From contig LXFE01000507.1 of NCBI GenBank assembly GCA_001929475.1, positions 1 through 33,921 on the forward strand: DNA of 33,921 nucleotides, written 5' to 3'. A program made the translations under genes and the position numbers. Below the pieces are notes generated by a model, which saw nothing but the letters and a program-made list of their open reading frames with translations, was not told where the DNA came from and searched no databases. Of this stretch, positions 1 through 33,178 are shown piece by piece. How positions within the stretch are numbered: the first letter of the stretch is position 1; every line of letters begins with the position of its first letter. This stretch comes from Neolecta irregularis DAH-3 (lineage: Eukaryota).

Positions 1-1437
1 GGCTCCCGCGCCCGCCGCAACACCGGCAGACGCAGCATTCTATGCAGCCCGCGCCTCAGATCCCCGCAGACAGCCTCAGCCGCCCTTCCCCCCTGCTCTC
101 TCCTCAGAACTCCCAAACCCGCAGGCCCACATGCCCAGAGTCAACATGAAGGAAGATGGGTATGTAGTTTCTTCACCGCCTAGTCTAGCTTCCTATTTCC
201 ACAGGATAGCTTCCCTTATCTACAGGATAGCCTCCTATAGCTACAGGATAGTTACATACCAGTACCTCAGTAGCTCAACATACTCTTATCTGACTTCTCT
301 GTTCTGCCTTCTCCACCACTGCAGCTGACTCGTGGTGTAGGAAAATGTTCATAGGCGGCCTCAACTGGGAAACCTCAGACGGTACCCTCCCATTGCTGCT
401 ACACGTTAAACACAAAGACTCCCTCAAAAACTACTTTTCCCAGTATGGAGACGTCGCAGAGTGCACAGTCATGCGCGACGGCGCTACAGGCAGATCCAGA
501 GGCTTCGGCTTCCTCACCTTCAAGGACCCCAAATGCGTAAACACAGTAATGGTCAAGGAACACTACCTGGACGGAAAAATTGTACGCCCCCTTTCTCTTC
601 TCCCCTCACCCAAGATCGACCCAAAACGTGCAATCCCCAGAGAAGAACAAGACAAAACTTCAAAAATATTCGTCGGCGGTGTCTCCCAAGAATGCACGGA
701 CTCCGACTTTCGTGAATACTTTGCCCAATTCGGCCGCGTCCTCGATGCTACTCTTATGATGGACAAAGACACTGGACGACCCCGAGGCTTTGGATTCGTT
801 ACCTTTGAATCAGACGCCGCTGTAGAAAACGCTCTCGCACAACCAGTTTTGATGATTAAAGAGAAACAGGTAGAATTTCAAATTTTTGCTTTCTTACTCT
901 TAGATTGAAGTAAAACGAGCTACCCCGAAAGGTGGCCCAAGTTTTGGCTCTTCCCGCAACGATTTTGGAAACGATGCATACAACTCATACAATCAAGCCC
1001 CGCAACAGCAATTCGCTCAGTCTCAACACAACTATTACAATGGAATGAGCCCCGCCGCCATGGCTCAATACTATCGGCAAATGCAGCAATACTATTCTGC
1101 ATTCCAGCAACAGATGGGCCGTGGTATGGCCAGACCCATGATGATGCCCGGTATGCCCACCGCCATAAACATGCAGGGGATGAACCCGGCCATGATGGGT
1201 TATGGACAACAACAAGCCGCAGACCAACAGTACTCTATGCCCGATTCCACTGACCAATGGGCAAATAACGGCAGCGTTAAATCAGACGAGGATATATCCA
1301 AAGTCCCCGCTAATGCCCCAAAAGGTCCTGCAGGAGGTTCGAGTGTCGGACGTGGTTCTTTTCGTGGACGGGGAAATTTCAGAGGTGCAGGTAGAGGCGC
1401 CCCAGGCGGAGCGAGATTTAATCCCTACGGTCGGTAA
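1..1437 (+). CDS. HRP1: Hrp1/Musashi-like hnRNP with two RRMs (cleavage factor IB type); the 5' end lies upstream of the window
   Basis: Spliced product reads KEDG|KMFIGGLNWETSD|SLKNYFSQYG..RSRGFGFLTF..DGKI|IDPKRAIPREEQDKTSKIFVGGV..RPRGFGFVTF, followed by a Q/M/G-rich tail, RGG repeats and a PY-NLS-like end (RFNPYGR*). Introns are 160-340, 382-417, 582-614 and 870-903. The frame is open from base 2. Confidence 0.92.
186..253 (+). repeat. About 3.2 copies of a 21-bp tandem repeat in hrp1 intron 1
   Basis: tagcttcctatttccacagga / tagcttcccttatctacagga / tagcctcctatagctacagga / tagtt. Confidence 0.9.
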
Positions 1438-5524: not shown

Positions 5525-7023
5525 ATGTCCTCTCAAGTCTACTACAAATTCAAGTCGTCCAAAGAGCCTTCGCGCGTCGTCTTTGACGGCTCCAGCATCT
5601 CTGTTTTTGACTTGAAACGTGAAATTATAATTGCAAATAAGCTTGGAACTGGCACAGAATTCGACCTGGCAATATATGACGATTCGACAAATCAGGGTAA
5701 CCTTTTGATGATATCAGTGCCCTATGCTAACCGTGAGAATTTGCGGATGACACCGCGTTCATATCCCGATCCACTTCTGTGACAGTTAGGAGACTTCCTG
5801 CTTTACGCCCTGGAAAAGGCACTGCTGCGAGGTATGTTAGTGGCATCGCCTCGACCCATAGCAACCGTCGCTTAGAATTTGCAAAGAAGGATGTCAAAAA
5901 GGAAATTCCTGTACGTATACTTTATGATCGAGTTTTGATAGATTGCCAGATTCCTAATACTGACCCCATCGGAGAAGACAACCTGTCGGCGTTTTTTAGC
6001 GCATCTTCTAACCAGTGGGAACAAACCCAGGAAAATCTTGCTTCACAGAAAAAGATCTTTTATTCAAAAAAGGCAAATCAGAATGCAAACGTCCCTGATA
6101 AACCTACTCCATCTGGTTATATTTGTTACCGATGCGGCGAGAAGGGTCATTGGATCCAGGCTTGCCCCACAAATGAAGACCCAAACTTCGACAAACGCCA
6201 GATTAAACGTACAACTGGAATCCCCAAGGCTTTTCTCAAGACAATCGAGAAGCCAGCTGAAGGGGGGAATGTGATGGTTAACGCAGATGGAGAATATGTT
6301 GTTGCTCGACCTGACGAGTATGTTTTATCATCATAATATGCTAATAATAGGTCTTCGTGGGAAACATATAGAGCAAAGACAACGGCGGCTTCGGCCTTTC
6401 AGAAACCAACAGATCCAGCGCTTGTATGCGGAATCTGTTCAAAACTCGTAGTTCAAGCTGTTCGAACGCCTTGTTGTGATAGTGTATATTGTGAAGAATG
6501 TATTCATTCCTCTTTATTCGAGAACGATTTCACTTGCCCTGGTTGTTTAGCCAGGGATATTCTTCTCGACGTGTTAAAAGTTGACGATGATATTCGAAAG
6601 CGTGCGGAAGAATATGCTCAAGCGCATTCTGTAGAGGTAGAGTTTTCCTGCGCACGCATTGTAAGCTTATCAAAGGTTCCTCAAGATTCGAAATCTCCCG
6701 AACCCGTTAGTAAAAAGCGCCCTGCTCCCGTCGATGAATCTTATCCAGACCCAAATATTCAAGCTTTTCCACCTTTTGGAGTTCCATTGATGATGCCCAT
6801 GATGCCAGGTATAGGAATGCCTCCTCCAATGATGCCAGGCATGACATTCTCGCCTCAATTCATGATGATGCCGGGCTACGGTAATTTCAATAATCCCTTT
6901 ATGCAATTTCCCAATCAGCAACCATATACCTCGGAAGATGATAGCCCGTATATGCGAAAACCAGTGAATGACCGACAACGCGCGAAGAGAGCGCGGCCAA
7001 GTGATTATCGTCAGGTTATGTGA
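5525..7023 (+). CDS. MPE1: Mpe1/RBBP6 cleavage-polyadenylation factor (DWNN ubiquitin-like domain, zinc knuckle, RING), 4 introns
   Basis: MSSQVYYKFKSSKE..ISVFDLKREII (DWNN); YICYRCGEKGHWIQACPTN..IKRTTGIPK (knuckle); CGIC..RTPCC..YCEECI..CPGC (RING); C-terminal RPSDYR. Confidence 0.93.
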
Positions 7024-7826: not shown

Positions 7827-8467
7827 TCAGAGCTCTATGCCAAGGAATACGAAGTTCTCTGACTCCTGGGCTGGTTTTTTTATCAACTCGAATCCAATCC
7901 AGCGGAGATCCTTTATCAAGCATCCTAGACATATTAGCTAGCTCTTGAGGGCCGAGACATACGAAGATCATCACGTTGGCGGTCCACACAAAGGATGAGA
8001 TGCTCGCAAGCAAAATAGTCAGCCGCCAACTCTGAAACGGCGATCAAGCCTTCTCTGAGATGTATGTCTGCAACTACTGAATCGACGCAAAGATGGAAAA
8101 AAGAATGCACGACGAAGGCATTCCACGTCACGCCATAGGCGTCTTGGATGACCAGTTTTTTGAGTTTTGAATGATGACAGGGGAATATTAAACGGCCGGA
8201 AAAAAGAGAAGAGGTCGCGCCTTCAAGTCCTAGAGATCTGTCACCTCTCCAGGATGAAGGATACGACGCCTCGCCGGTAGACGACGAGGACTTTTGGCCG
8301 GTGGCCTGCGGGATCAGCGATGCGATGGGATTTGCGGTACCGCCTCAGGGCCACCACTTGAGCGCGCAGTTGCCGGTACTGGAAGACAGAGAAGACTGCG
8401 CGGTACAAGACGAAGCGGTACTGAACAAGCTGCTGCTAAGACTGGCGGGAGAGAAGTTATTCGCCAT
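7827..8467 (-). CDS. OAZ1: Ornithine decarboxylase antizyme; needs a +1 programmed frameshift at CCC-TGA (8350-8345); introns 8340-8306 and 7962-7925
   Basis: ORF1 is 40 aa and ends ..CALKWWP-TGA. The spliced +1 frame gives ..TWNAFV..LREGLIAVSELAADYFACEHLILCVDRQRDDLRCLIKDLRWIGFEL..ENFVFLGIEL*, the fungal antizyme signature (S. pombe spa1 orthologue). Confidence 0.92.
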
Positions 8468-11997: not shown

Positions 11998-12289
11998 AAT
12001 AGTTCTATACAGGCTAACGGGTTGTAACGTTCTTGTTTTAGTATTATAGAACTTGAATTGGCCAAAGTCTCTATTTATCAGCCATGTCTTTGTAATTTAT
12101 AGAGAATTCGGCAATAAACCAGAGCACTACAATATATATGGAGGAGCGATAAAATTTAAACCTGACAAATGAGTTCTCGCAAATTTCGTCATCGCTGTTA
12201 ACTTGTTTCCCTCACGCAGTAACAATTGTCATTCCATTGCCCAACCACCTACGCGCATCCCTTTCCATCCTGCTAAAATACTATCAAAC

Positions 12290-14222
12290 ATGTCTGAAGC
12301 TATGTATATCTTTCCTTTTCACATCTATGAAAGTTAAACTGACACCAAGATTGCGCTTGGCCGGTATTTCCGGCCATGTGCGATCGCTCGATAACAGTGC
12401 TGGTTCGTTCATCTCACATACTTGAGACATATATAGCTAATACTCTTACGCAAAGATCTCGGCCTAATCGGTCTCGCTGGTACGTTATTATATTCCTTTA
12501 ATGGCATTGCTGATCGTGTTAGTTATGGGGCAGGTATGTAATCGCCTTGTCCTGGTTTAATCATGTACTATAGAACCTGGTCCTCAACGCCAATGACAAA
12601 GGATTTATTGTTGGTATACATTCAATTCAAAAGTTACACGGTCTAATCTGTGGCTAGCTGTTTTCAATCGTACTGTCTCCAAGGTTGACCACTTTTTGGA
12701 GAACGAAGCCAAAGGTAAAATATTATCATATTTTGGAAGCTCAAATCGAACAGGGACAAATATTGTCGGTTCTCATTCGATAGAAGAGTTATGCTCTCTG
12801 TTGAAGCGACCCCGTAGGGTTATGCTTCTTGTCAAAGCCGGTTCGGCCGTTGATGACTTCATTGCCAAACTCTTACCACATCTTGAGGAAGGAGATATCA
12901 TTGTTGACGGTGGTAACTCTCACTTCACTGATACCAACAGAAGATGCGATGAGCTCTCAAAGCGCGGAATCCTTTTCGTCGGCTGCGGAGTTAGTGGTGG
13001 AGAAGAAGGTGCTCGAAATGGTCCAAGTTTGATGCCTGGAGGCAACGAAGCTGCATGGCCTCATATCCGAGAAATTTTCCAAAAGATTTCCGCTCATACT
13101 GATGGAAAACCATGCTGTGAGTGGGTTGGCTCTGTAAGCTCCAAGATGTTCTTACAGAAACGTACTCAACCCCAAGGGTGGTGCCGGTCATTACGTGAAA
13201 ATGGTTCATAATGGTATCGAATATGGTGACATGCAAGTCATTTGCGAAGCTTATGACTTGTTGAAACGTGGTCTTGGAATGCATGAGAATGAAATTGCGG
13301 ATGCATTCACCGAATGGAATAAAGGTGTCCTCGACTCTTTTTTGATTGAGATTACCAGCGACATTCTTAAGTACAACGACAAAGACGGGGCACCTCTCGT
13401 CTGCAAGATTCTCGATACTGCTGGCCAGAAAGGGACCGGGAAATGGACCGCTATATCTGCTCTCGATCTCGGTATGCCAGTTACCCTCATAGGAGAAGCT
13501 GTCTTCAGTCGATGCCTATCATCTATCAAGTCAGAACGGCATGTAATTAGTGAAAGATTGTTCCTGACTTTAGTGTTCGAGCAAGCCGAATTCTCTCCGG
13601 CCCACGTCCAGAATACCACGGAGACAAAAGTAATTTCATCGCTCAACTCGAACAAGCCCTCTATGCCTCAAAAATCATATCATACACTCAGGGATTCATG
13701 CTGTTTCGAGAAGCAAGTAAGACTTACAAATGGAACCTTAACTACGAGTCTATTCCTCAGATGTGGACTGATGGATGTATTATTCGTAGTGTTTTCCTCC
13801 AAGATATCACCGCTGCTTTCACCAAGAATCCAGAATTGGAAAACTTGCTCTTTGATCCGTTCTTTAAGAAGGCTATCGAAACGGCTCAAAATAGTTGGAG
13901 GCAGGTGGTCGCTCAAGCTACCTTATGGGGAATTCCTTGCCCTGCTTTTAGCACTGCCCTGAGTTTCTTTGATGGATATCGAAGCGAACGAGTATATATT
14001 TTCAAAGCTTCTATTGACAAATTTAGCTCCCAGCTAACTTGCTGCAAGCTCAACGAGACTACTTTGGAGCTCACACTATCCGAATACTCCCGGAATGTGT
14101 TTCAGAATCACTTCCAGCTGATGAAGGTGCTTTGCATCGATTGTTAGGTCTAATGTACAGATATCCATATCAACTGGACAGGACATGGCGGAAACGTCAG
14201 CGCGTCCACGTATCTCGCCTAA
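12290..14222 (+). CDS. gnd1: 6-phosphogluconate dehydrogenase (decarboxylating), 10 introns, with 5' micro-exons and two possible acceptors in intron 1
   Basis: [113 protein letters not shown]. Confidence 0.97.
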
Positions 14223-15572: not shown

Positions 15573-16327
15573 TCAGCCACCCTTTTTCTCGTTTGCTTTT
15601 CGGGATTCTTCCATGCGTCTGCGTTCACCTTCTAACTGCACATTTCAGAGATGGGTAAACGACGGATGTACTCACGACTGTTCTCACTCTTCCCAGTCCA
15701 TTGACATCATTCCGGAGACTTTTGGTTGCATTTGCAGTGTAAGGGGGATCTACGATGATGTCGTCTAACACGGCAATACTCTTGCCATTCCATTTACAAG
15801 GCAGACTATAAACAATAAGAGCAAGTGGATGTAGGCTTGTACGTCTTTGACAAGGCCATGAATATTGCACGGCCGTCGTTGGAGACTCCGTTTGGAATTT
15901 GGGAGATGGATGCCCGTGCATTTTTAGCCTTTGGATTGCCTTTGACCTCTAGGGATGGGAGCGAGATAGGGCCAATTGCAGGAACTGCAGTCGTGAAGGG
16001 CGCCGCTGTTTCCTCTGCGGATTTCTGGACGGGTTTTTCGAGAACCTGGACGCTTTCGAGATGAGAGATCTTCCACGTATGGACTGTGCAAGCGTGCAAC
16101 ATGGTATTTACCGCAGGACTGGATCCCGTATTTAGTTCTACAGCAGAAAAGAGCGTGATGGTGTTTGAGGCGGCATCGAAGGCGTATACTCTGCCGCAGA
16201 TCTCGTCGCGAAAAGCGGTGATGATCTTTATTCTGCACCGTCAGCCATGAACGGAAGTAATGGCGGCGTGCTTCAGACCAATAACCCAATCCACGGTAAA
16301 CAAATGGGACGACTGCGGCGGAGGCAT
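15573..16327 (-). CDS. LSM12: Lsm12-like protein (Lsm fold plus anticodon-binding-like domain), 3 introns
   Basis: MPPPQSSHLFTVDWVIGLK|IKIITAFRDEICGRVYAFD..GVSNDGRAIFMALSKT|LPCKWNGKSIAVLDDIIVDPPYT..RVRTV|LEGERRR..KKGG*. Confidence 0.85.
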
Positions 16328-16462
16328 TGCAGTTGTTCCCGCAGTGCAGGAGACTGGTGAGTCTGGCGCTGAGTCTCAGATTTCCCATGTGTCAGGGATC
16401 ATCACGTGCTCAGCCACTCGCTTCCTACCCGCGCCTTCCCGCCAACTGCGCCACTGAAAACA

Positions 16463-19400
16463 ATGAAACAGCGAATTTCGTCGCTTGATCTGCGCGCTCT
16501 TGCACATGAACTACACCACCAGATCGTATCTTTGCGCCTGCAAAATATCTACGATCTAGGAAACAGCCGCTCTTTCATCTTCAAGTTTGCCCGTCCTGGT
16601 CTCAAACATGTGTTGCTCGTCGAATCAGGTTTCCGCCTCCATTTGACCGACTTCGTGCGCGATAAATCTGCGGCCCCCTCAGCATTTTGCGCAAAGGTAT
16701 GACTCTATATTGCCGGGATTGCTGGGAGCTAATGGTATCGCCAGCTGCGTAAACATATTCGTACTAGACGCCTCACTGGGCTTTCGCAGATAGGAACAGA
16801 TAGGGCCTTGAAGCTCACTTTTGGTGGATATGACGATCCTCTCCGGAACTACAATGTCATCCTCGAGTTCTATGCAAAAGGAAACATCGTCCTTACCAAT
16901 GGAAACATGACCATTCTGGGAATCTTGCGGTTGGTCACCGTTGAAGAAGAAGGGGAACAGCAAAGATATGCTGTCGGTGAGAAATATAAACTTGCTGAAA
17001 GGCAAGAGTTTCAACCAATGACCCGCGAACGTCTGCTTGATCTCGTTGCCAAAAGATTGTGCGAAACTGTCGACGAAGAAGTTGCAAACCCCCTTCAAAG
17101 AACCAAGAAGAAACGCTCAAAAGCCAAAAATACTCTTGCCAACATTCTTGGTGTGCATGCAAGCGAGTATGGCGCGGCTCTTGTCGAACATGTTATCTTA
17201 AAGTCTGGAATAAACCCAAATGCAAGTTTGGCCGATGTCGACTGGAATGCAGACAGTCCCGAGATATCTGCTTTGCTCAGTTCATTCAAAGAGGCAGAAC
17301 AAATCATCAACACCTGTTCTCAGCCATGCTTGACAGGATTCATCATTGCCAAGAAAGAAAACCGCGATCCTGCTAAAAACGAATCGAGTGGCTCTACACA
17401 AGAAATCCTACTTTATGAAGAATTCCACCCCTTCCTGCCCATACAGTTTGCCGACAGATCCGATATTTCCATAATAAAATTCGAACAAGGTTTCTCACAC
17501 ACTACAGATGTGTTCTTTTCGACACTCGAAGCCCAAAAGCTCGAATCCCGCTTGCGTCAAGCTCATCTCACAGCTGAAAAACGTCTTCAAAGCGCACGTG
17601 AAGAACACTCTCAGCGAGTGCAAAGTCTCAAGTTAGTCCAAGAAGTCAACATAGGAAAGGCTCGGGCTATTGAAGCGAATTTAAATAGAGTTGATGAAGC
17701 TGCGGCTGCCGTCTCTGGACTTGTTGCCCAAGGGATGGATTGGATGGCTATCGAGACGTTGATAAAATTGGAAAAGACAAACAGCAATCCCGTTGCCGAG
17801 ATTATTTGTCTACCATTAAAACTAGCCCAGAACTCTATTACCTTGGCTCTTACTTTTGGTGATGATGACGACGAAGAAAGCGATTCAGGCATCGACGAAA
17901 CCGAAAGCGAAGCCAGTGACTCTGAATCCGGATATGAGATTCGAATACGAGAAGTGCTTAAAGTTGACATTGATCTCTCGATCTCAGCCTGGGGTATGTT
18001 TAACCATAGGCCTTTATTAATGCGTAGCGAACGCCCGAAATTACTACGGAAAGAAACGTCAAGCTGCAGCCAAACAAGAAAAGACCGTTCAGTCATCTTC
18101 CAAAGCTCTGAAATCCACAGAAAAGAAAATCGCTGCCGATCTCAAGAAGAGTCTTGCCCAAGAGAAACAACTCATGCACCCCATTCGCAAGACGCAATGG
18201 TTTGAAAAGTTTTATTGGTTTATTTCTAGCGAAGGCTATCTTGTACTGGGGTATACCTCCTTTCGCAGCCCTACAAATATTCCTAACAATAATTTGTAGA
18301 GGTAGAGACGCTCAACAAAATGAATTGCTTTACAAGCGCTATTTTCGCAAAGGAGACATCTACGTGCATGCAGACCTTCAGGGCGCTTCTAGCGTAATTA
18401 TTAAAAACACATCGCAAACTGCCCCAATTCCACCTGGGACATTATCTCAAGCCGGACTGTTCAGTGTCGCTACTTCAAAAGCTTGGGATGCTAAGATTCT
18501 TACTTCGGCATGGTGGGTTCATCATGAGCAGGTAAGTAAGACAGCTCCCACTGGAGAATATATCACCACTGGGTCCTTTATGATCCGAGGGAAGAAAAAC
18601 TTTTTGGCACCTGCTCCTTTAGTCATGGGTTTTGGCATTTTATGGGTTTTGGATGAGGCAAGTAGAGATAGACATCTCAAGAGACGACTTGAACGAGAGC
18701 AGAGAACTGAAGAGAGAGAGAAGGATTCTGTGGCATCCCACATCAATGACAAAGAGTACTCTTCGATACAGCAATCAGCAAATATCGACCCACAATCACA
18801 GAAAACAACTGATGCATCTCTAGAATTGTCTTCAGTCCTGCCAACAGATGATAATGAAAGGAATGGAATGACCGCAAACGACAAATATGATCTCGCAGAC
18901 TATGGAGACGAGATATCCCTTCCCTCATTCTTGCAACCAGTCCAACCTTCGACCTCTGGGAAACCACACATTTCCGCAAGACAGCGTCGTGACATGTCGA
19001 AGGCTCAAATACAGGGCGTCCTGCCATCTAGTCCTTTGGATAGTGGGATTTCAACGCCCATCTCGGAGGCAGATCCAGATGGAATACCTGTAGCACTCAC
19101 TCCAGAGGAACTGGATCGGTCTGGCGCAGGATTATCAAATGGTCCAACACGTAAAGAACATCGAAAACCTCAGGTTCGCGGGAAGAAAGGCCAGCAGAAA
19201 AAAGCCCAGAAATATGCAGATCAAGATGAAGAAGAACGGCAATTACGAATGCAACTTCTTGGAGTAGCAAGACAAACGCAAACTAGCGTGCCACAAGAAA
19301 ATCCCACATTCAAGAAGAAACCCAAGATTGATAGAGAGGCGAAACAACTGTTAAAGGAAGAAAATATCCAAGTGTTGAATGAAGAAGAGGAAGCGAATTT

Positions 19401-19814
19401 AACCCTTTTGGATAATTTCACTGGTTTTCCTTTGCCGGATGACGTATTGTTAGGTGCTATTCCTCTCTGTGGTCCTTATGCGGCTATGGGAAAATACAAG
19501 TACAAGGTATTCCCAGGTCTTATTTCACATTTCCTCTAAATGTTGTAGGTCAAACTTATACCAGGGAGTATGAAGAAGGGAAAAGCAGTCAAGGCTCTCT
19601 TGTCACATTTCGCGAGCATGACGATTGGACAAGATAGTGAAACCGCTAGCCTTACAGAGCTGGAACTAGTAAAAACTATTAAAGGTATTTATTTTGGTCA
19701 TGTGTTTCTTATGCTTTAGACGCCGAGATGTGTGTTGGCATTGGCAAGATGAAAGTGATGACTGGAAAATCGGACTCTTCAAAGGGTAAAGCTAAGGGAA
19801 AGGGAAGAAGGTGA
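16463..19814 (+). CDS. RQC2: Ribosome quality control subunit Rqc2/Tae2/NEMF (NFACT-N, coiled coil, NFACT-R, NFACT-C), 5 introns
   Basis: MKQRISSLDL..RLQNIYD..LLVESGFRLHLT..FCAK|LRKHIRTRRL..GTDR; WFEKFYWFISSEGYLVL; GRDAQQNELLYKRY..YVHADLQGASSV; QVSKTAPTGEYITTGSFMIRGKKNF; KYKYK|VKLIPG. Confidence 0.95.
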
Positions 19815-20548: not shown

Positions 20549-20750
20549 TATTCAACCGACTAGTATTGTCTGCGACACTGCTTCCGCAAGAATGTTCTGG
20601 CCCATGTCTTATACACATCGTGGCAATAATGATATATATAATCATAACTCACGTAGTTATTCTGTATCTATATTGTTATCATCAAGAATGCTATCTTCAC
20701 GTCCAAGACAGTTCCCCGCACTGTGCACCTCGCTCACTGTCACGACTCCC

Positions 20751-23197
20751 ATGAAGTTTGCCAATCACCTACGAACAAGTCTTATCCAAGAGTTCCGCTA
20801 CCAATATGTCGACTATCAGGGGGCTAAACGCGATCTCAAAGACAGATTGAGAGATCATCCTTGGCGTGACGAAGATGAAAAGGCTTTCATCGAGAGGTTG
20901 GACCAGGAACTCGACAAAGTATGGACTTTCCAGAAAGTCAAATCTGGGGAAATCGCAAAACGAGTGAAGGCAACTGATAAAGATGTGTCTGAAGTTGTTG
21001 AAAACATCGAGTTGGATGAGCCTGAGCGAGTCAAGGAAGCTTTCTTGTATTTGGAAGAAGTTTTATTCGATATCATTGCAGATGTGCATGATTTAGCAAA
21101 ATTCACGCGGCTGAACTATACTGCCTTTGAAAAGATCCTGGTATGTCAAGCTTCAAGTACCCCAGCTAACCGTGCAGAAAAAACATGATGTACGGCTTAT
21201 CTCTCTCATTTGCTTACCATAGAAACAAACGGGAAGACGTCTAAAACACACTTGGTCGATAAAACTACAAGAAAAACCATTCTACAAGGAAAATTACGAC
21301 TCTTTAATCCTAAAATTATCAAAACTATACGACCTTGTGCGCAATAAAGGACATCCCATACAAGGAGATAGCTCTGCTGGAGGAAAACAACAAAACTTTG
21401 TCCGCCAAACTACCAAATATTGGGGCAACTAATATTTTACACATTGAGTACTGACTGATAGTTCATCCTGACAACATTACAGAATTGAAACTTATTATTC
21501 TTCAACATCTTCCTGTTCTCACCTTCAATCCAAACAAGGAGTTCGATCTCGCTGACTCGGCGATTTCGTCAATATATTTTGACAATGATGATCTGCAACT
21601 TTATCTTGGACGACTTGAAAAAATCGAGGGGGCTGAAGCTATCCGATTGAGATGGTATGGAGGAATGGATGTGAATACCATCTTTGTCGAACGGAAAACG
21701 CATCGTGAAGATTGGACGGGTGAGAAAAGTGTAAAGGCACGATTCAGTTTAATGGAAAAGCGTGTGAATGAATATTTGAAGGGTTCTAAAACCGTTGAAC
21801 AATTATTCGAGAAAACTCGAAGAGATGGGAAGAAATCTTTAAAAGAAATTCAGCAACTCGAGACGCTCGCAAGAGAGGTTCAATATACTTGCATTAAAGA
21901 TAAACTTCAGCCAGGTATTGCCACTCGACGATCACCAAGTTGATAGCTAGTGGTTCGAACATTCTATAATCGTACCGCGTTTCAACTGCCAGGCGATGCT
22001 CGAGTTCGGATTAGTCTCGACACTGAATTGACAATGATTCGGGAAGACAATTTCGACGGCAAGGAGAGGGCCAGAGATAATTGGCGACGAAGAGATGTAG
22101 GAATTAACTGGCCTTTTGTACACTTGCCCGAGGAAGAGGTTGAACGGTTCCCTTACGCTGTCCTTGAAGTCAAACTTCAAACCCACGTTGGCCAAGAGCC
22201 TCCTGCTTGGATTCGTGAGTTAGTTCAAAGTCATTTGGTCTCCTTGGTCTGTTGTATCCGATACTAATGGTGCAGGTTGAAGCCGTTCCAAAATTTTCAA
22301 AATTCATCCATGGAACAAGTGCTCTTCTTCCAGAGAAAGTTAAGCTTCTTCCGTTCTGGTATCCTCAGATGGACGTTGATATTAGAAAGCCAGAGATCCC
22401 TCATTTCGGAATTGAAAGACAACCAGCAAGTGCTTCTGCATCTGCTTCAGAAAACGATGACCAGTATCTTGATAGGATTCGTGCACTGAACGAAGATGAA
22501 TGTCCTGGTAGCCTTGGATCTCAGCATGATGATCGAGATGATGATGTCGAAGATCGCTACGATGATGCTGCAATTGAATTTGAAGATGATGAAGAATCAT
22601 CTCTGGGTTGTATACAGGATGAGGATTCAACATTTCTACAAAAGGTTTCCAGTGCTCTTGCAATAATTGGCCAAAAGTTGAGATCCAAACGACCCTTATC
22701 AGCTTCTCAGTCCGAGGAAGACGAGGGACCTGAATTAGGGACCATCTACACTCAACGCTTTCGAGCACCTCCCGGAAAAAGCATGTCTAGTTACATCTAA
22801 GTCAATGCTTACTCTTTCAGAAATTTCTGTTCCCGTTCGAATCGAACCCAAGGTCTATCTTGCAAACGAGCGAACCGTGTTGGAATACATGCAAACAGCC
22901 ATTTACATCGGTGCAGTGGGAACCAGTTTGATGAACTTTGGGGACAAGACGTCGTTACTGGCTAGCGCCGCATTCACTCTAACTGCTGTACGCTACTTTC
23001 TCAATTCATTGCTAAAACCCCAGATCGTAGTATCAATCTACTCAACGGCGCGTTTCCTAGTCCGAGCTATATACATAAGAAGGCGGAGAGACACTGGCTA
23101 TATCGATCGATTTGGGCCAACGATGCTCTGCCTTTTGATACTCATAAGTCTTACCTTGAATTTCTGGTTACGACTTCGAAGTGAGAGAGACTTTTAA
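20751..23197 (+). CDS. VTC4: Vacuolar polyphosphate polymerase catalytic subunit (SPX, VTC/TTM, 3 TM), 7 introns
   Basis: MKFANHL (SPX start), [123 protein letters not shown]. Confidence 0.95.
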
Positions 23198-23309: not shown

Positions 23310-25104
23310 TCACATTTGCCATTTTCCTTGTTCAAAAGCCTCCGCCTTTTTCAAGACTTCATCTTCTTTTTCAAGAGCGAACTCACACAATCTTCTTCGT
23401 ATTGACTTTTCTGTGATTCCTAGCATTCTGATCGCCAAAAGAGCAGCATTCGTGCTATTGTTAATGGCAACAGTCGCAACCGGCACCCCTCTCTGCCAAA
23501 GTGAGCATATTTAATGAAAGAAAAGAACGTACAGGCATTTGCACAATGGAATGGAGTGAATCTACTCCACCAAGAGTCTTTAATTCTACAGGAACCCCTA
23601 TAACTGGCAATGTAGTCAACGCAGCAACCATTCCTGGCAAATGAGCAGCACCACCAGCTCCTGCGATGATCACTTTAATTCCACGTCCAGCCGCTTCTCG
23701 GGCATATCGGAACATTCGATCAGGTGTCCGATGTGCAGACACAATCGTGATCTCAAATGGTATGCCAAATTCTGATAATATATTTGCGGCATTTCGCATT
23801 CGTGGTAAATCAGAATCTGACCCCATAATGATTGAAACAACTGGCAATGACAAGGTCAAAGAAGAAGGATTGGTCATTGAGTCGGCATTCGAAGTAAGAA
23901 TATTGGCGAGTCGATAATCACACTCTGACATACTAGATCCAACAATCGTAACATGTCCCATCTTGCGCGATTTTCTCGACTCTAATTTTCCGTAGAGATG
24001 TACTGTAGCACCTGGCGTCTCTAGAGCTTTCCTACAGATTTGATGATGCTCATCAGGTGTTTCTCCGCCCAAAATATTCAACATGATTGAAGTAGTCTTC
24101 ATGGCAGTACAAAGTTTGGGAAGCGGAAGACCGGTTATAGCTCGAATATGAGCCTCGTACTGTGAAGTATTGCAGGCTTCAATCGTGTAATGACCTGAAT
24201 TGTGCGGCCGAGGGGCAATTTCGTTGATCAGAATGTCTCCTAGAAGAAGTAAGCTATCCATTGCAAGTACAGGAGAGGTTACCCGACTTCATCAGAAACA
24301 TTTCGACTCCAAATACTCCGGCTCCATTAAATGTAGAGATAGCTTTCTCTGCGATGATTCTAGCTTTCGCTTGGACTGATTCCATCACGCGAGCAGGCGC
24401 GTAGACCAGGTGGCAAATGTTGCTTTGGTGGATTGTCTCGACGGTAGGATAAGAGATTATGTTTCCTTGCGTTGTACGAATGACTACGACGGCAAGTTCC
24501 TTCTCAAACTCTGCCCATTTTTCAACATAAAGAGGTTGATCTGGGAGCGTCTTTATAATCTCGGTGACCGATTCCGCCGACGATACGACAAAGTTTCCAC
24601 GACCATCATATGACAAAGTTCGCGACTTCAGCATACAGGGATATCCCAATTGTTCACCAGCGGTCAGTATTTCATGTCGACTCCTTTGCACTGGTATTGA
24701 TTGGGTTGTCGGCAACCCTTTTGAGGTGAGATGTTCTTTTTGAGTGAATTTGTCTTGAATGATTTTAATCGTTTCGCTCGAAGGATGAACCTCGACTTTT
24801 CCTTCCTTTTCTATCTCTCCAAGTATTTGGGTATCAACATGTTCAATTTCAGTAGTAAGGATGTGACATTTCGAGGAAAGCGTTTTAATTGCTGACGGAT
24901 CTGAGAATGACCCGTCAATATGTTGAAGCGAATTGATTTGCTTCGCCGGCGAGAAAGGAGCATCAAGGATGATAGTTTTGATATTCAGTCGATTAGCAGC
25001 TTCGACAAGCATTCGCCCAAGTTGGCCGCCGCCTTTACATTATTAAGTATAGCTGGTGATTAAAATGTGGATGCACCTAGTATACCAATTGTTCGACTGT
25101 CCAT
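23310..25104 (-). CDS. ADE2: Phosphoribosylaminoimidazole carboxylase (PurK-PurE fusion; S. pombe ade6), 3 introns
   Basis: [110 protein letters not shown]. Confidence 0.97.
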
Positions 25105-26434: not shown

Positions 26435-26604
26435 CAGTGCCAGCTTTGTATTGCAACTTCAAATCCTCAATCTCTTTTTTTGCATATAAGAATTGGGTAT
26501 AAACTGTGATATATTTAATCAAACCACTGAATGAGTGTGCACTCTGCGTGTTTCGTGTTGCTTGTTTACGACATTCCAGTTCCGTCTCCACCAAATCCTC
26601 ATCC

Positions 26605-29600
26605 ATGAATCAAGGTACTCCGCCAGGAACTCCAAATCTTATCTCGTTTGACACGTTTGAGAATCAGAAAGAAAACATACAACCAAGGCCGGAGGGACGT
26701 TCTGCTAAAGCACTCGCCCAAGTATTTTCGGCTTCTCCACGAACACAAAGAACTTCTCTCGCTAGTACAAAACAAGCGTATGAACGAGAAATAGCAAATT
26801 GTGATGAATCCGACGATCCTCTCGATATATGGATCCAGTACATTAAATGGGTTACTGACAATTATCCACAAGGCCAGAGCGTGGATAGTGGGCTAGACGA
26901 CCTCTTCGAACGCTGCACCTCGAAATTCAAGGATTCAAAACATTACTATAATGATGCGAGATATCTTCGTCTTTGGATGCAATACGCGCGAAGATCGGAT
27001 TCACCAAAGGATATTTTCGTTTTTCTTTACAGAAACCAAATTGGCGCGGAATTAGCTATGTATTACGAGGAATACGCGGCTTTTCACGAGTCTATGGGAA
27101 GGTTTCGTGCATTTCTATTGATGGTATTCTAATTGAGTCTAGGAAGAATCAAGCCGATGATATTTACAAACTCGGAATTTCTAGAGGTGCGAGGCCGTTA
27201 GAACGACTACAGCGACGTTATAATGAGTTCAAACATCGCTTCAACGCAGATCCCTCCTCCTTGGAGAATGATCCTGCTCTTCCAGACCCACTTCGTCCAG
27301 TTCTTGGTAGTCAGTCGTCATTCCTCCCCATGGGTAGCACTCAACAATCCTCAAGTCAACAGTCCCGGCAGACTAATCGAATTGAGGTATTTTCAGACGC
27401 GAAAGGATCCGAGGATGCCGTTAGTACTGGTGGCTGGCAAAGTATAGGAACTTTGCAAGGTAAGAAAAAAGAAAATGTTCAAGACCCAAAGCCCTGGGCC
27501 GGAGAGAAATTAAAGATGAAAACAAAATCCGAATCTCAAGAATCAGATCGATTTATGGTCTTCAAGGATGAAAATGTACAAGCACTTATCGAAAATCATA
27601 GCTAATATCTGTAAGGCACTATCATCTTCAGCTATATCAAATCGAACTCCTCCTCTTCTCAAGGCGGCGCAAAATAATTCTTTGCGGCCACCTCCTCAGC
27701 CTGGAAAGCGACCAGAATTTGTGGTTGTTAATCTCGAGGCTATGTATCCGTCTCCTGGTGTTGAATACTCCTATGAAGAACTCCGCGCTAAATTACATGG
27801 CTTGTATCAAGTCAAATGGCCAGAGAACCCAAAGAAATCTTCACCGATTTCAACTTTTCAACTTTCTCAACCTTCCCAGTCTCAGGATTACATGATGGAA
27901 CTCAAAGAAGCGCAAACTCCAGTCAAAAGTAAGTAACCTTGTGATAGATTGAACTGATGCCCAAGGCTCTCCAAATTCGAATAGTGACTTCATCAAGCGC
28001 AAAGCTGCTTCTCCAACTATTAACACAAAGGAAGCTATGGCCGATATTATTGATATATTTAGTCAACCTCTGAAATGTGATCGCAGCGATTACGACAGTT
28101 CGGTTGAAGACGAAGAAGACTTGACTCGCTATGGAGCAGATAACATGTCCCAGTTACGAGAGGGTTTGCCTATCAAACAGCAATTCCCGCCTCCAGCTCC
28201 TCAAGCTTCCGAATCTAGTGGCTTTCTTCCAATTCGAGAGACACAACACAACCCAGGAGCCCAAATGAATCATCTTTTAGAACCCAAAACTCCTCATTTA
28301 CCTCAATACCACGATCGACGCCCCACCTCATTTGATCTAATGACTCCAATCACAGAAAATACCGAAAATCTCCCCAGCACAATTATGTCAAAGTTAGCTA
28401 TCAGTACAAATGATATCCACGGTCGAGATGGTCCGCTTAGTTCGCCATTTCATGACGACATAACTCTGGATACTCCGAATCTGAATTCGACGTTGGTAAA
28501 GTCAAAGGTTGTTGGGCCTCTACCACAAAGAAAAGGACCCATCATCACAGAGGCTGTATGTAATCCGCTTGATCCTGGTATCAAATCCACTATTTTCGCT
28601 TCGTTGTGGCCTTCAATCGATTCATACCAAGGTTATAACGCTTATGATCACTCACTCCATAAATCGGAGGTTCTCGAGAAATATTTCAAGACAAATGCTA
28701 AAGGCAATGCTTCCGAAATCACTCTCGAGTTGGGATCTTGTCAGTTTTCACTACAAACGAAACTCGGCGAAGGAGCCTATGGAGCAGTTTATCTTGCAAG
28801 GAACATTTCTGAATCGAAATTGTATGCCGTGAAGGTGGAAAAAACTTCAACTGCATGGGAATTTTATATCATCAATCAGATTAAGCGAAGACTAGGCGTG
28901 TCAAGAGCTGCACTGTCGATCATTGAGGTTTACGATATGCACTTATTTCGTGATGAAGGATATCTTTTTCTCGAATATTGCGACCAAGGCACGGTTTTGG
29001 ATATTGTAAATCTTGCCAAGGCTGATGGTGGGGGAGTTCTGGATGAATTATTAGTTATATTCTTCTCGTTGGAATTGATTCGAACAGTTGAATCGTTTCA
29101 TTTGAAAGGAATTTTGCACGGAGATTTGAAACCTGATAATTGTCTTCTTCGTCTGAAGGATTTTTCAGAAGAATGGTCCTCCCAGTTCCGAAGAGATGGC
29201 AGTGGTGGATGGTCGTCCAAAGGTCTGACTTTGATTGACTTTGGACGAGGAATTGATATGAAACTCTTCGTTCCGAACGTTCAGTTTATCGTGGATTGGG
29301 AAACGGATGAACAAGATTGTGCTGAGATGAGAGAGATGCGACCCTGGACCTATCAAGTCGACTATCACGGCCTTGCAGCTATTATTCATACCATGTTGTT
29401 TGGCAAGTACATTGAGACAGTCAAAGAATCCAAAGGACCTGGAATCGGTAACAAGAAGTACTCTGTCAAGGCAAGCATTAAGAGATACTGGCAAGTTGAT
29501 ATGTGGAGAGATCTTTTTGACCTACTTCTTAATCCTTTGGCAAATGCTGGATCAGATGGCCTTCCGGTCACTAAGCAATTGAGTAAATTTCGCGAAGATA

Positions 29601-29692
29601 TGGAGACATATCTGGAAGAAAACAGCTCCAAGGGTCTTGGATTAAAAGTTCTTTTGAAACAGTCCCAAGCACAATTAGCACACGGGCGGTGA
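26605..29692 (+). CDS. BUB1: Spindle checkpoint kinase of the Bub1/Mad3 type (MadBub), 3 introns
   Basis: QKENIQP..GRSA; TPR (DDPLDIWIQYI..YNDARYLRLW); second KEN (KKKENV); GLEBS (EYSYEELRA); SPTINTKEA; kinase motifs LGEGAYGAVY, AVK, HGDLKPDN, LIDFGRGIDM, PWTYQVDYHG. Confidence 0.95.
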
Positions 29693-32731: not shown

Positions 32732-33178
32732 CTTTGACTCGAGCTAGGGGGTTTGAGAAATCATTCGGCAGGAGTTTTCTAGATAAAGGAGCATATCCGG
32801 AAGCGATCATCGGATGTGCACCAGTATGTGTGGCTTCGGCTAATGGGTAACTGTCCCTCGTCCCTCATTATCACTGGAATAAAGTTTTTGTACTGGCTGG
32901 TCAGAAGAATATATTTATGACGGAGGGTCAGGTTTGAAACTGGCGGTGGTGTCTCTAGACATAGACATGGACATCATATACATAGGCAGATAAAAATACC
33001 TTCGGCAATAGAAAGCCGGAGCAGGAAAGTCCTGCTCCACCTTCATGTTATGCCGTGGAACATTTTCAGTTCCGATAATTAATTAGTCACCAGGTACAAC
33101 TCCGGAAGCGATATTGATCACATGTCAAGCCAAGTTCATATGACAGAAAATAATTACCGCTTTTAGTGACCATCTACC

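Follow-up and report, generated by a model that had tools for sequence, protein, structure and literature searches.

The first intron of gnd1, the 6-phosphogluconate dehydrogenase (6PGDH) gene of Neolecta irregularis DAH-3 on contig LXFE01000507.1, has two in-frame 3' splice sites, of which the proximal one would add to the enzyme an N-terminal peptide resembling the peroxisomal targeting signal type 2 (PTS2) and the distal one would yield the canonical fungal N-terminus. The contig was analyzed over its positions 1 to 33,921 on the forward strand, and this whole stretch of 33,921 nucleotides (nt) is referred to below as the window. Peroxisomes need reduced nicotinamide adenine dinucleotide phosphate (NADPH), and fungi send a small share of their pentose-phosphate enzymes there by several post-transcriptional mechanisms. 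Judging from the sequence, we estimate at about 0.55 the probability that gnd1 is alternatively spliced and that its product is dually targeted.

According to the explanation that we favor, splicing of the gnd1 pre-mRNA would join the 14-nt exon 1 to either of two alternative 3' splice sites. Use of the distal CAG (12397) together with a 5-nt micro-exon would give a cytosolic enzyme of 490 amino acids (aa) starting with MSEAIADLGLIG, and use of the proximal AAG (12349) would retain 48 nt and give a 506-aa enzyme with an N-terminal PTS2, a fraction of which Pex7 would carry into peroxisomes, where NADPH would then be made. A predicted hairpin may engage the G of the proximal AAG in a base pair and remove 37 nt from the path, placing the distal CAG within ~19 nt of A12342, the sole good branch site; with this stem in place, splicing would mainly produce the distal, cytosolic junction, and the PTS2 form would be minor. 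The proximal AAG would perhaps be used when the second splicing step precedes transcription of the 3' arm of the stem. We infer the use of both sites, their ratio, the import by Pex7, and the role of the hairpin, and it is by analogy with other fungi that the PTS2 form is proposed to be the minor one.

The gnd1 gene and the two acceptors of its first intron

The gnd1 gene encodes a decarboxylating 6PGDH. Its model is identical to the protein P0001 in 443 of 475 aligned columns (93.3%), with 0 gaps, and Pfam families PF03446 and PF00393 match the protein cluster that holds both P0001 and the public gnd1 model P0121 (NCBI OLL25082.1), whose NCBI name, '6-phosphogluconate dehydrogenase, decarboxylating 2, partial', agrees. 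When homologues of exon 7 were searched (120 best matches of 8000 candidates scored), P0001 was found at 93% identity and the rest of the matches listed, spread over fungi, at 78% or less. None of these 120 bears a Neolecta name, and P0121 emerged through its membership in the cluster of P0001. The features of the gene are as follows.

12290..14222, + strand: gnd1 (6PGDH), complete from ATG to TAA, 11 exons
12290-12303, + strand: exon 1, 14 nt, ATGTCTGAAGCTAT, peptide M S E A I-
12304, + strand: donor GTATAT of intron 1
12304-12349, + strand: intron 1, proximal version, 46 nt
12304-12397, + strand: intron 1, distal version, 94 nt
12338-12343, + strand: branch-like ACTGAC, branch A12342, 7 nt to the proximal AG and 55 nt to the distal AG
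12347-12349, + strand: proximal acceptor AAG
12349-12385, + strand: predicted pre-mRNA hairpin of 15 base pairs (bp), with stems of 8 and 7 bp, a U-U mismatch between them, and the loop UAUUU
12350-12397, + strand: alternative cassette, 48 nt, coding for 16 residues with the proximal acceptor and intronic with the distal one
12350-12402, + strand: exon 2 of the long form, 53 nt
12354-12380, + strand: PTS2-like nonapeptide R-L-A-G-I-S-G-H-V, collinear with fungal 6PGDH PTS2 motifs
12364-12369, + strand: candidate internal donor GTATTT, inside the hairpin (closing pair and loop), giving a 14-nt exon and the form MSEAILRLADLGLIG
12395-12397, + strand: distal acceptor CAG, product starting MSEAIADLGLIG
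12398-12402, + strand: exon 2 of the short form, micro-exon TGCTG, 5 nt, equal to the last 5 nt of the long-form exon 2
12403-12455, + strand: intron 2, 53 nt, GTTCGT...CTAAT...AAG
12456-12479, + strand: exon 3, 24 nt, -D LGLIGLA-, start of the Rossmann fold
12523-12533, + strand: exon 4
12574-12613, + strand: exon 5
12658-12714, + strand: exon 6
12754-13133, + strand: exon 7
13177-13538, + strand: exon 8
13539-13573, + strand: GC-AG intron, 35 nt, GCATGT...CTGAC...TAG
13574-13991, + strand: exon 9
14027-14126, + strand: exon 10
14161-14222, + strand: exon 11, stop TAA at 14220-14222

The exon 1 sequence, branch sequence, acceptors, micro-exon, and internal GT had been placed in a preliminary description of this locus, and all of these coordinates and frames proved correct when the sequence was re-read. 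The two acceptors lie 48 nt apart and both are in frame, as claimed there, with the long (506 aa) and short (490 aa) forms open to the TAA at 14220-14222. The third option proposed there, a 14-nt exon ending at the GTATTT at 12364, is likewise in frame and yields an open form of 493 aa; we set it aside as a formal option whose use is unsupported.

The distal acceptor restores the canonical fungal start, MSEAIAD-LGLIG as compared with MSEAVAD-IGLIG in P0091, and the result also resembles the N-termini of Saitoella and of the short Umbelopsis proteins. At the level of sequence, therefore, gnd1 pairs each of its two in-frame acceptors with a different N-terminus, PTS2-like for the proximal and canonical for the distal 3' splice site. 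The 46 nt between the two acceptors (12350-12395) are free of AG, a property found in 3,397 of the 67,752 46-mers of the window (5.0%). Branch-like motifs available to the distal CAG are the ACTGAC 55 nt away and an ATAAC (12390-12395), which was rejected as a branch site because its A lies just 3 nt from the AG, compared with 6-15 nt in other introns. With intron 1 taken in its proximal version, the ten introns of gnd1 measure 34-53 nt, and in eight of them a branch-like NT[AG]A[CT] is present 6-15 nt before the AG.

The gnd1 protein ends with -STYLA, which does not fit the pattern [SAC][KRH]L of the type 1 signal for peroxisomal targeting (PTS1) printed in a passage of the Neolecta genome paper (PMC5309816), so any peroxisomal routing of Gnd1 would rest on its N-terminus. 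At the other end of the gene, an A occupies position -3 of the gnd1 AUG, and an upstream ATG opens a 10-codon frame to TAA (12169-12201), 121 nt before the gnd1 start, which could be an upstream open reading frame if transcribed. The run of tiny exons at the 5' end is unusually dense, with six introns cutting the first 200 coding bases (12290-12714) into exons of 14, 5 or 53, 24, 11, 40, and 57 nt. Further downstream, a frameshift or pseudogene at 13539-13574 was ruled out, as the GC-AG intron restores the frame and is the only reading that joins IKSER to VRAS, where P0001 has IKPERVRAS.

The public protein model of gnd1 is wrong at the 5' end and at one GC-AG intron. Compared over 12169-14222, P0121 comprises 546 aa, is designated 'partial', and has no start codon; it translates the 5' region of gnd1 and the cassette in the wrong frame, regains the correct one through a TAG acceptor at 12436, and lacks K-S-E through the use of a GT donor at 13530. 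The model was probably made without RNA guidance; the main text of the genome paper (PMC5309816) does not contain the words RNA-seq or transcriptome, and the word intron is likewise missing from it.

A PTS2-like cassette and its counterparts in other fungi

Codons 12354-12380 read RLAGISGHV, in accordance with the preliminary description, which had noted a match to PTS2 in all but the final V. In terms of the consensus (R/K)(L/V/I)x5(H/Q)(L/A), as printed in a passage of PMC7214817, the peptide agrees at positions 1, 2, and 8. Among 200,000 shuffles of the cassette, 114,921 were open, and of these 442 contained a loose PTS2 and 59 a pattern modelled on a Petriv-type consensus, widened to accept V or I at position 9 as well. 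Over the whole window and in six frames, the loose pattern occurs at 42 of 67,838 positions and the strict pattern R[LVI]x5[HQ][LA] at 9. Chance appears to be a poor explanation for an open, in-frame PTS2 motif and is given little weight, because few shuffles match and because the motif is collinear with those of other fungal 6PGDH N-termini.

The N-termini of 121 proteins were examined for this comparison. The Rossmann start pattern D[ILF]GLIGLAV was found in 83 of them, the other 38 being truncated models or proteins with the animal-type IAVIGLAV. A motif of the form [RK][LVIQM]x5[HQ][LAFVIM] is present shortly upstream of the Rossmann start in 18 of the 83 (among the matches listed), and its carriers are Candida-clade yeasts, Umbelopsis, Austropuccinia, and Logan or JGI proteins. 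The H-V ending is shared by a Yamadazyma protein (P0107) and a yeast-like metagenome contig (L014), and the exon 1 peptide MSxA[VI] is common to the N-termini of Umbelopsis, Saitoella, and P0091.

Two Umbelopsis species have paired models. Umbelopsis sp. WA50703 has a short protein, P0097 (MSQAVAD-IGLIG), and a long one, P0101 (MSQAVNRLHNLSRHIDSSNSAD-IGLIG), and U. vinacea has the short P0099 (MSQAVAD-) and the long P0122 (MSTQAVNRLHTLSRHIRISPSAD-). The short models comprise 484 aa and the long ones 499 or 500 aa, with a PTS2-like insert of 15 or 16 residues after MSQAV, in which the nonapeptide is RLHNLSRHI. Each pair mirrors the two forms of gnd1, with the same short exon 1 peptide and, in the alignment, a cassette that ends just before A-D, which suggests that the same two-acceptor intron exists in Mucoromycota. 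Related N-termini are those of Jimgerdemannia (RLSNFARHL, ...SERLSNFARHLSPTATPSAD-) and Blyttiomyces (RLSNLAKTI, with T in place of H/Q). The first 40 residues of Umbelopsis P0101, used as a query, retrieved 5 proteins at an E-value of 0.001, a number that should not be read as a census.

Metagenomic DNA was scanned as well, and 80 loci were listed, with identities of up to 71%; P0001's own contig, which is transcript-like (1859 nt with a reading frame of 475 aa), is not among these 80. The N-terminus encoded by L014 is MLRLSQIAGHVTNKASGD-FGLIG, with the motif MLRLSQIAGHV and the nonapeptide RLSQIAGHV, and directly after the PTS2 motif this contig has TACTAAC...TAG, that is, a branch box of its own by the distal site. 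In the region 2734-3000 of L014, the frame is open from 2734, in-frame ATGs occur at 2806 and 2923, and a GT comes directly after a 14-nt ATGCATGAAGCGAG that is similar to the 14-nt exon 1 of gnd1. A transcript-like metagenome contig (L013), ~70% identical to P0001, carries in its region 100-160 the leader RLTSLSAHL upstream of an ATG (MSEASCD-IGLIG), in frame and with no stop between; the leader lies in a frame open from base 76, with no in-frame ATG before the motif. This layout is the one described for non-AUG initiation of U. maydis Pgd1.

We consider it very likely that the cassette is a genuine PTS2 module with homologues in other fungi. Aligned with the N-terminal extensions of other fungal Gnd1 proteins, as the preliminary description had envisaged, it is collinear with those of Umbelopsis, Jimgerdemannia, Yamadazyma, and L014, and we regard it as probably homologous to the PTS2 cassette found at the same position in Saccharomycotina and Mucoromycota 6PGDH genes. 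Neolecta, a member of Taphrinomycotina, had fairly been called a distant lineage, and the Umbelopsis models reach even further back. The proposal that the same NADPH-supply switch may exist in this lineage is partly supported, by the 6PGDH gene, its layout, and the collinear cassettes, and is weakened by the final V, which departs from the strict consensus.

The predicted hairpin and the competing explanations

The first pair of the hairpin predicted at 12349-12385 joins C12385 to G12349, the last base of the proximal AAG, and the probability of this pair is 0.98-1.00 from 10 to 45 °C. The 37-nt hairpin has a folding energy of -26.4 kcal/mol (z-score -6.24), its 75-nt context -31.9 kcal/mol (z-score -4.07), and its 171-nt context a z-score of -3.83, with 0 of 200 shuffles as stable in each case. 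The 75-nt window containing it ranks 11th of 13,540 on both contig strands; other 75-nt windows that are as stable or more so (-32 to -38 kcal/mol) are confined to 16301-16380 (+), 33001-33076 (both strands), 8212-8291 (-), and 2-81 (-). When the 14 inner codons were changed synonymously and the peptide was kept, an equally stable fold was found in 1 of 3000 samples weighted by gnd1 codon usage and in 0 of 3000 uniform samples, and therefore the hairpin is not a by-product of the peptide. With the stem folded, the distal AG, 55 nt away from the branch A in the linear sequence, would be separated from it by ~19 nt (7 before the stem and 12 after it).

Other identities of the hairpin were considered and rejected. 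As a thermosensor it is too stable, with a pair probability of at least 0.98 up to 45 °C; it has no repeat elsewhere in the window, which excludes a repeated element; and its single Rfam match scores 13.3 bits against a gathering threshold of 33, which excludes a known RNA family. A more far-reaching proposal is that the cassette carries a double code, i.e., a PTS2 peptide and a hairpin that hides the AAG, loops out the segment, and sets its own low inclusion, and that the cassette predates the split between Mucoromycota and Dikarya. We put this forward tentatively and consider it rather doubtful.

Several observations weigh against alternative splicing and dual targeting of gnd1. The V at position 9 lies outside the L/A of the printed consensus, and in the 18 homologue motifs this position is dominated by L (10) and I (5), with F, M, and V occurring once each, the V in Yamadazyma P0107 (RLQLVNSHV). 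An exon of 5 nt is extreme, and at 94 nt the distal version of intron 1 would have almost double the length of the next longest intron (the others measure 34-53 nt). The long and short Umbelopsis pairs are gene models, not transcripts, and P0001, which starts at an internal MGQNL, is uninformative on the 5' end. Comparative support for the hairpin is absent, as no such structure is predicted in the two other PTS2 regions with DNA (z-score +0.58 in L014 and +2.03 in L013). Pneumocystis, which also belongs to Taphrinomycotina, was reported in 2007 to lack both PEX5 and PEX7, according to a passage of PMC1855432. Finally, the proximal AAG is ordinary for gnd1, closing a 46-nt intron with the branch site 7 nt upstream, and resembles in this respect the acceptor of a constitutive intron.

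In a rival explanation, the 46-nt intron is always removed, so that every Gnd1 carries RLAGISGHV and any division between compartments results from a weak signal (V9) or from limiting Pex7. Both the intron length and the branch-AG distance are typical of gnd1, AAG serves as the acceptor at 12455 and 13176 too, no 5-nt exon is needed, and the cassette bases are part of P0121 and of three Umbelopsis models. Constitutive inclusion leaves unexplained, however, the in-frame CAG that regenerates the consensus N-terminus at the same point at which the Umbelopsis short models end, the AG-free 46 nt, and a hairpin beyond the needs of the peptide; moreover, the PTS2 form is minor in those fungi for which RNA-seq is reported in passages of PMC7491326. 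We consider this explanation unlikely.

Conversely, the short form could be the sole product, the 48 nt being intronic and their PTS2-like reading a relic of an ancestral cassette, unused or used too rarely to function. Passages of PMC7491326 provide precedents, as A. fumigatus and C. auris have a potential proximal site for which junction reads were not found and losses are reported in other yeasts; the V at position 9 could be a sign of decay, and the hairpin could merely make the distal site reachable. A relic, however, would not be expected to be open, in frame, and matching PTS2 at positions 1, 2, 5, 6, and 8, as are only 59-442 of the 200,000 shuffles, and the Gnd1 extensions of Yamadazyma P0107 and L014 end in H-V as well. 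Its probability appears low.

The hairpin might, alternatively, act in translation and not in splicing, either by aiding start-codon recognition or by throttling synthesis of the PTS2 isoform. Kozak is said to have found in 1990 that a downstream hairpin at a spacing of ~14 nt helps start-codon recognition, and in gnd1 exon 1 is 14 nt long and A12350 is base +15 of the long mRNA, so that the first paired base lies 14 nt past the A of the AUG; the stability of the hairpin relative to shuffles and synonymous recodings is also compatible with such a role. Nevertheless, the AUG already has A at -3, so that help seems unneeded, and the G12349-C12385 pair uses an intronic base available only in the pre-mRNA. 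A translational role appears very improbable.

Alternative splicing with dual targeting would require Pex7. Passages of the Neolecta genome paper name PEX5, PEX8, PEX19, PEX26, and PEX33 (PMC5309816); PEX7 is not named in them, and pex7 or pex-7 has 0 occurrences in one supplementary file, although other supplements may bear on it. Literature searches combining Neolecta with Pex7 and Pex7 with Taphrinomycotina returned nothing relevant. No WD40 or PEX7 candidate is present among the Pfam-matched long open reading frames of the window, and the neighbors of gnd1, assigned by Pfam matches on long open reading frames, are housekeeping genes.

345-908: RRM protein
5779-6336: zinc-knuckle protein
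18154-19539: NFACT (Rqc2/Tae2-like)
20592-21188: SPX-domain protein
23461-25012, - strand: ADE2 (ATP-grasp and AIR carboxylase)
26506-29692: Mad3/BUB1 region, then protein kinase

Comparison with known systems

For GND of Candida albicans, alternative 3' splice sites were reportedly described by Strijbis et al. in 2012. The preliminary description had taken it as established that C. albicans Gnd1 is divided between cytosol and peroxisome by an alternatively spliced PTS2, and passages of PMC7491326 agree: in C. albicans, as in L. starkeyi and C. jadinii, splicing to the proximal 3' site retains the PTS2 and splicing to the distal one leads to the cytosolic form, and the PTS2 form accounts for ~0.1% of the mRNA in C. 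albicans. The same passages report junction reads for the GND event in C. albicans, L. starkeyi, and C. jadinii, with Y. lipolytica achieving it by exon skipping, and a potential proximal site unaccompanied by junction reads in A. fumigatus and C. auris (PMC7491326). According to Hurtig et al. (2020), the event took place over 332 million years ago, 'possibly earlier' (a passage of PMC7491326).

Neolecta gnd1 resembles Saccharomycotina GND in that the same enzyme is encoded with a 5' intron that has two in-frame acceptors, the proximal one associated with PTS2 and the distal one with the cytosolic form, and the Saccharomycotina nonapeptides are of the same type (RLSILSKQL, RLSVISRHI, RLQLVNSHV). 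It differs in belonging to Taphrinomycotina, in that the distal choice would leave a 5-nt micro-exon with the next intron directly after it, and in having its sole good branch site upstream of the proximal acceptor; unlike the cassette of the yeast-like L014, that of Neolecta is predicted to fold into a 15-bp hairpin. In Yarrowia lipolytica, the PTS2 is likewise located on an optional 5' segment of GND, but this segment is included or left out by exon skipping (a passage of PMC7491326). We regard gnd1 as a Taphrinomycotina member of the known GND splice type, in a lineage for which the literature searched holds no earlier description; no paper linking Neolecta with 6PGDH targeting was found in that literature, in which the single match (PMC1855432) is unrelated, and none combining 6PGDH, PTS2, and Mucoromycota. 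What appears to be new is that the gene comes from this lineage, that the cassette apparently extends back to Mucoromycota, that the candidate micro-exon has 5 nt, and that a predicted hairpin coincides with the PTS2 codons. The Taphrinomycotina example and the paired Umbelopsis models point to an origin of GND splicing before Dikarya, and, if this is true, peroxisomal 6PGDH produced by alternative splicing would be among the oldest conserved alternative-splicing events of fungi.

A different route is used by U. maydis Pgd1, in which a cryptic PTS2 is reached by non-AUG initiation and the resulting minor isoform amounts to ~2%; dual targeting of fungal PGD is argued to be conserved, with a mechanism that varies (Kremp et al., 2020; passages of PMC7214817). 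Neolecta gnd1 would share with Pgd1 a minor isoform of the same enzyme with an N-terminal PTS2, the minor status being presumed for Neolecta. The PTS2 of Pgd1 lies in the 5' untranslated region and is initiated at AGG/AUU, whereas the PTS2 codons of Neolecta (12354-12380) lie downstream of the AUG at 12290, in a spliced segment joined in frame by splicing, and gnd1 does not belong to the Pgd1 type.

For the hairpin, the closest comparison is the APE2 intron of S. cerevisiae, the stem-loop of which Meyer et al. reportedly described in 2011 as an 'RNA thermosensor'. The predicted Neolecta stem-loop has the APE2-type arrangement, as it lies between the branch point and the distal CAG and engages the proximal AAG, and the alternative product has extra N-terminal residues. 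According to passages of a review, a proximal AAG in APE2 is masked by the stem-loop and splicing goes to a distal CAG instead, and structures can make a far 3' site reachable from a branch point (PMC11585973). The two differ in that the APE2 stem melts on heat shock, whereas that of Neolecta is predicted to remain folded from 10 to 45 °C, and in that the Neolecta stem, unlike that of APE2, itself codes for the targeting signal. If real, the hairpin and the micro-exon would constitute a compact natural case in which RNA structure sets the ratio of two differently targeted isoforms, and the targeting signal would set its own low inclusion rate.

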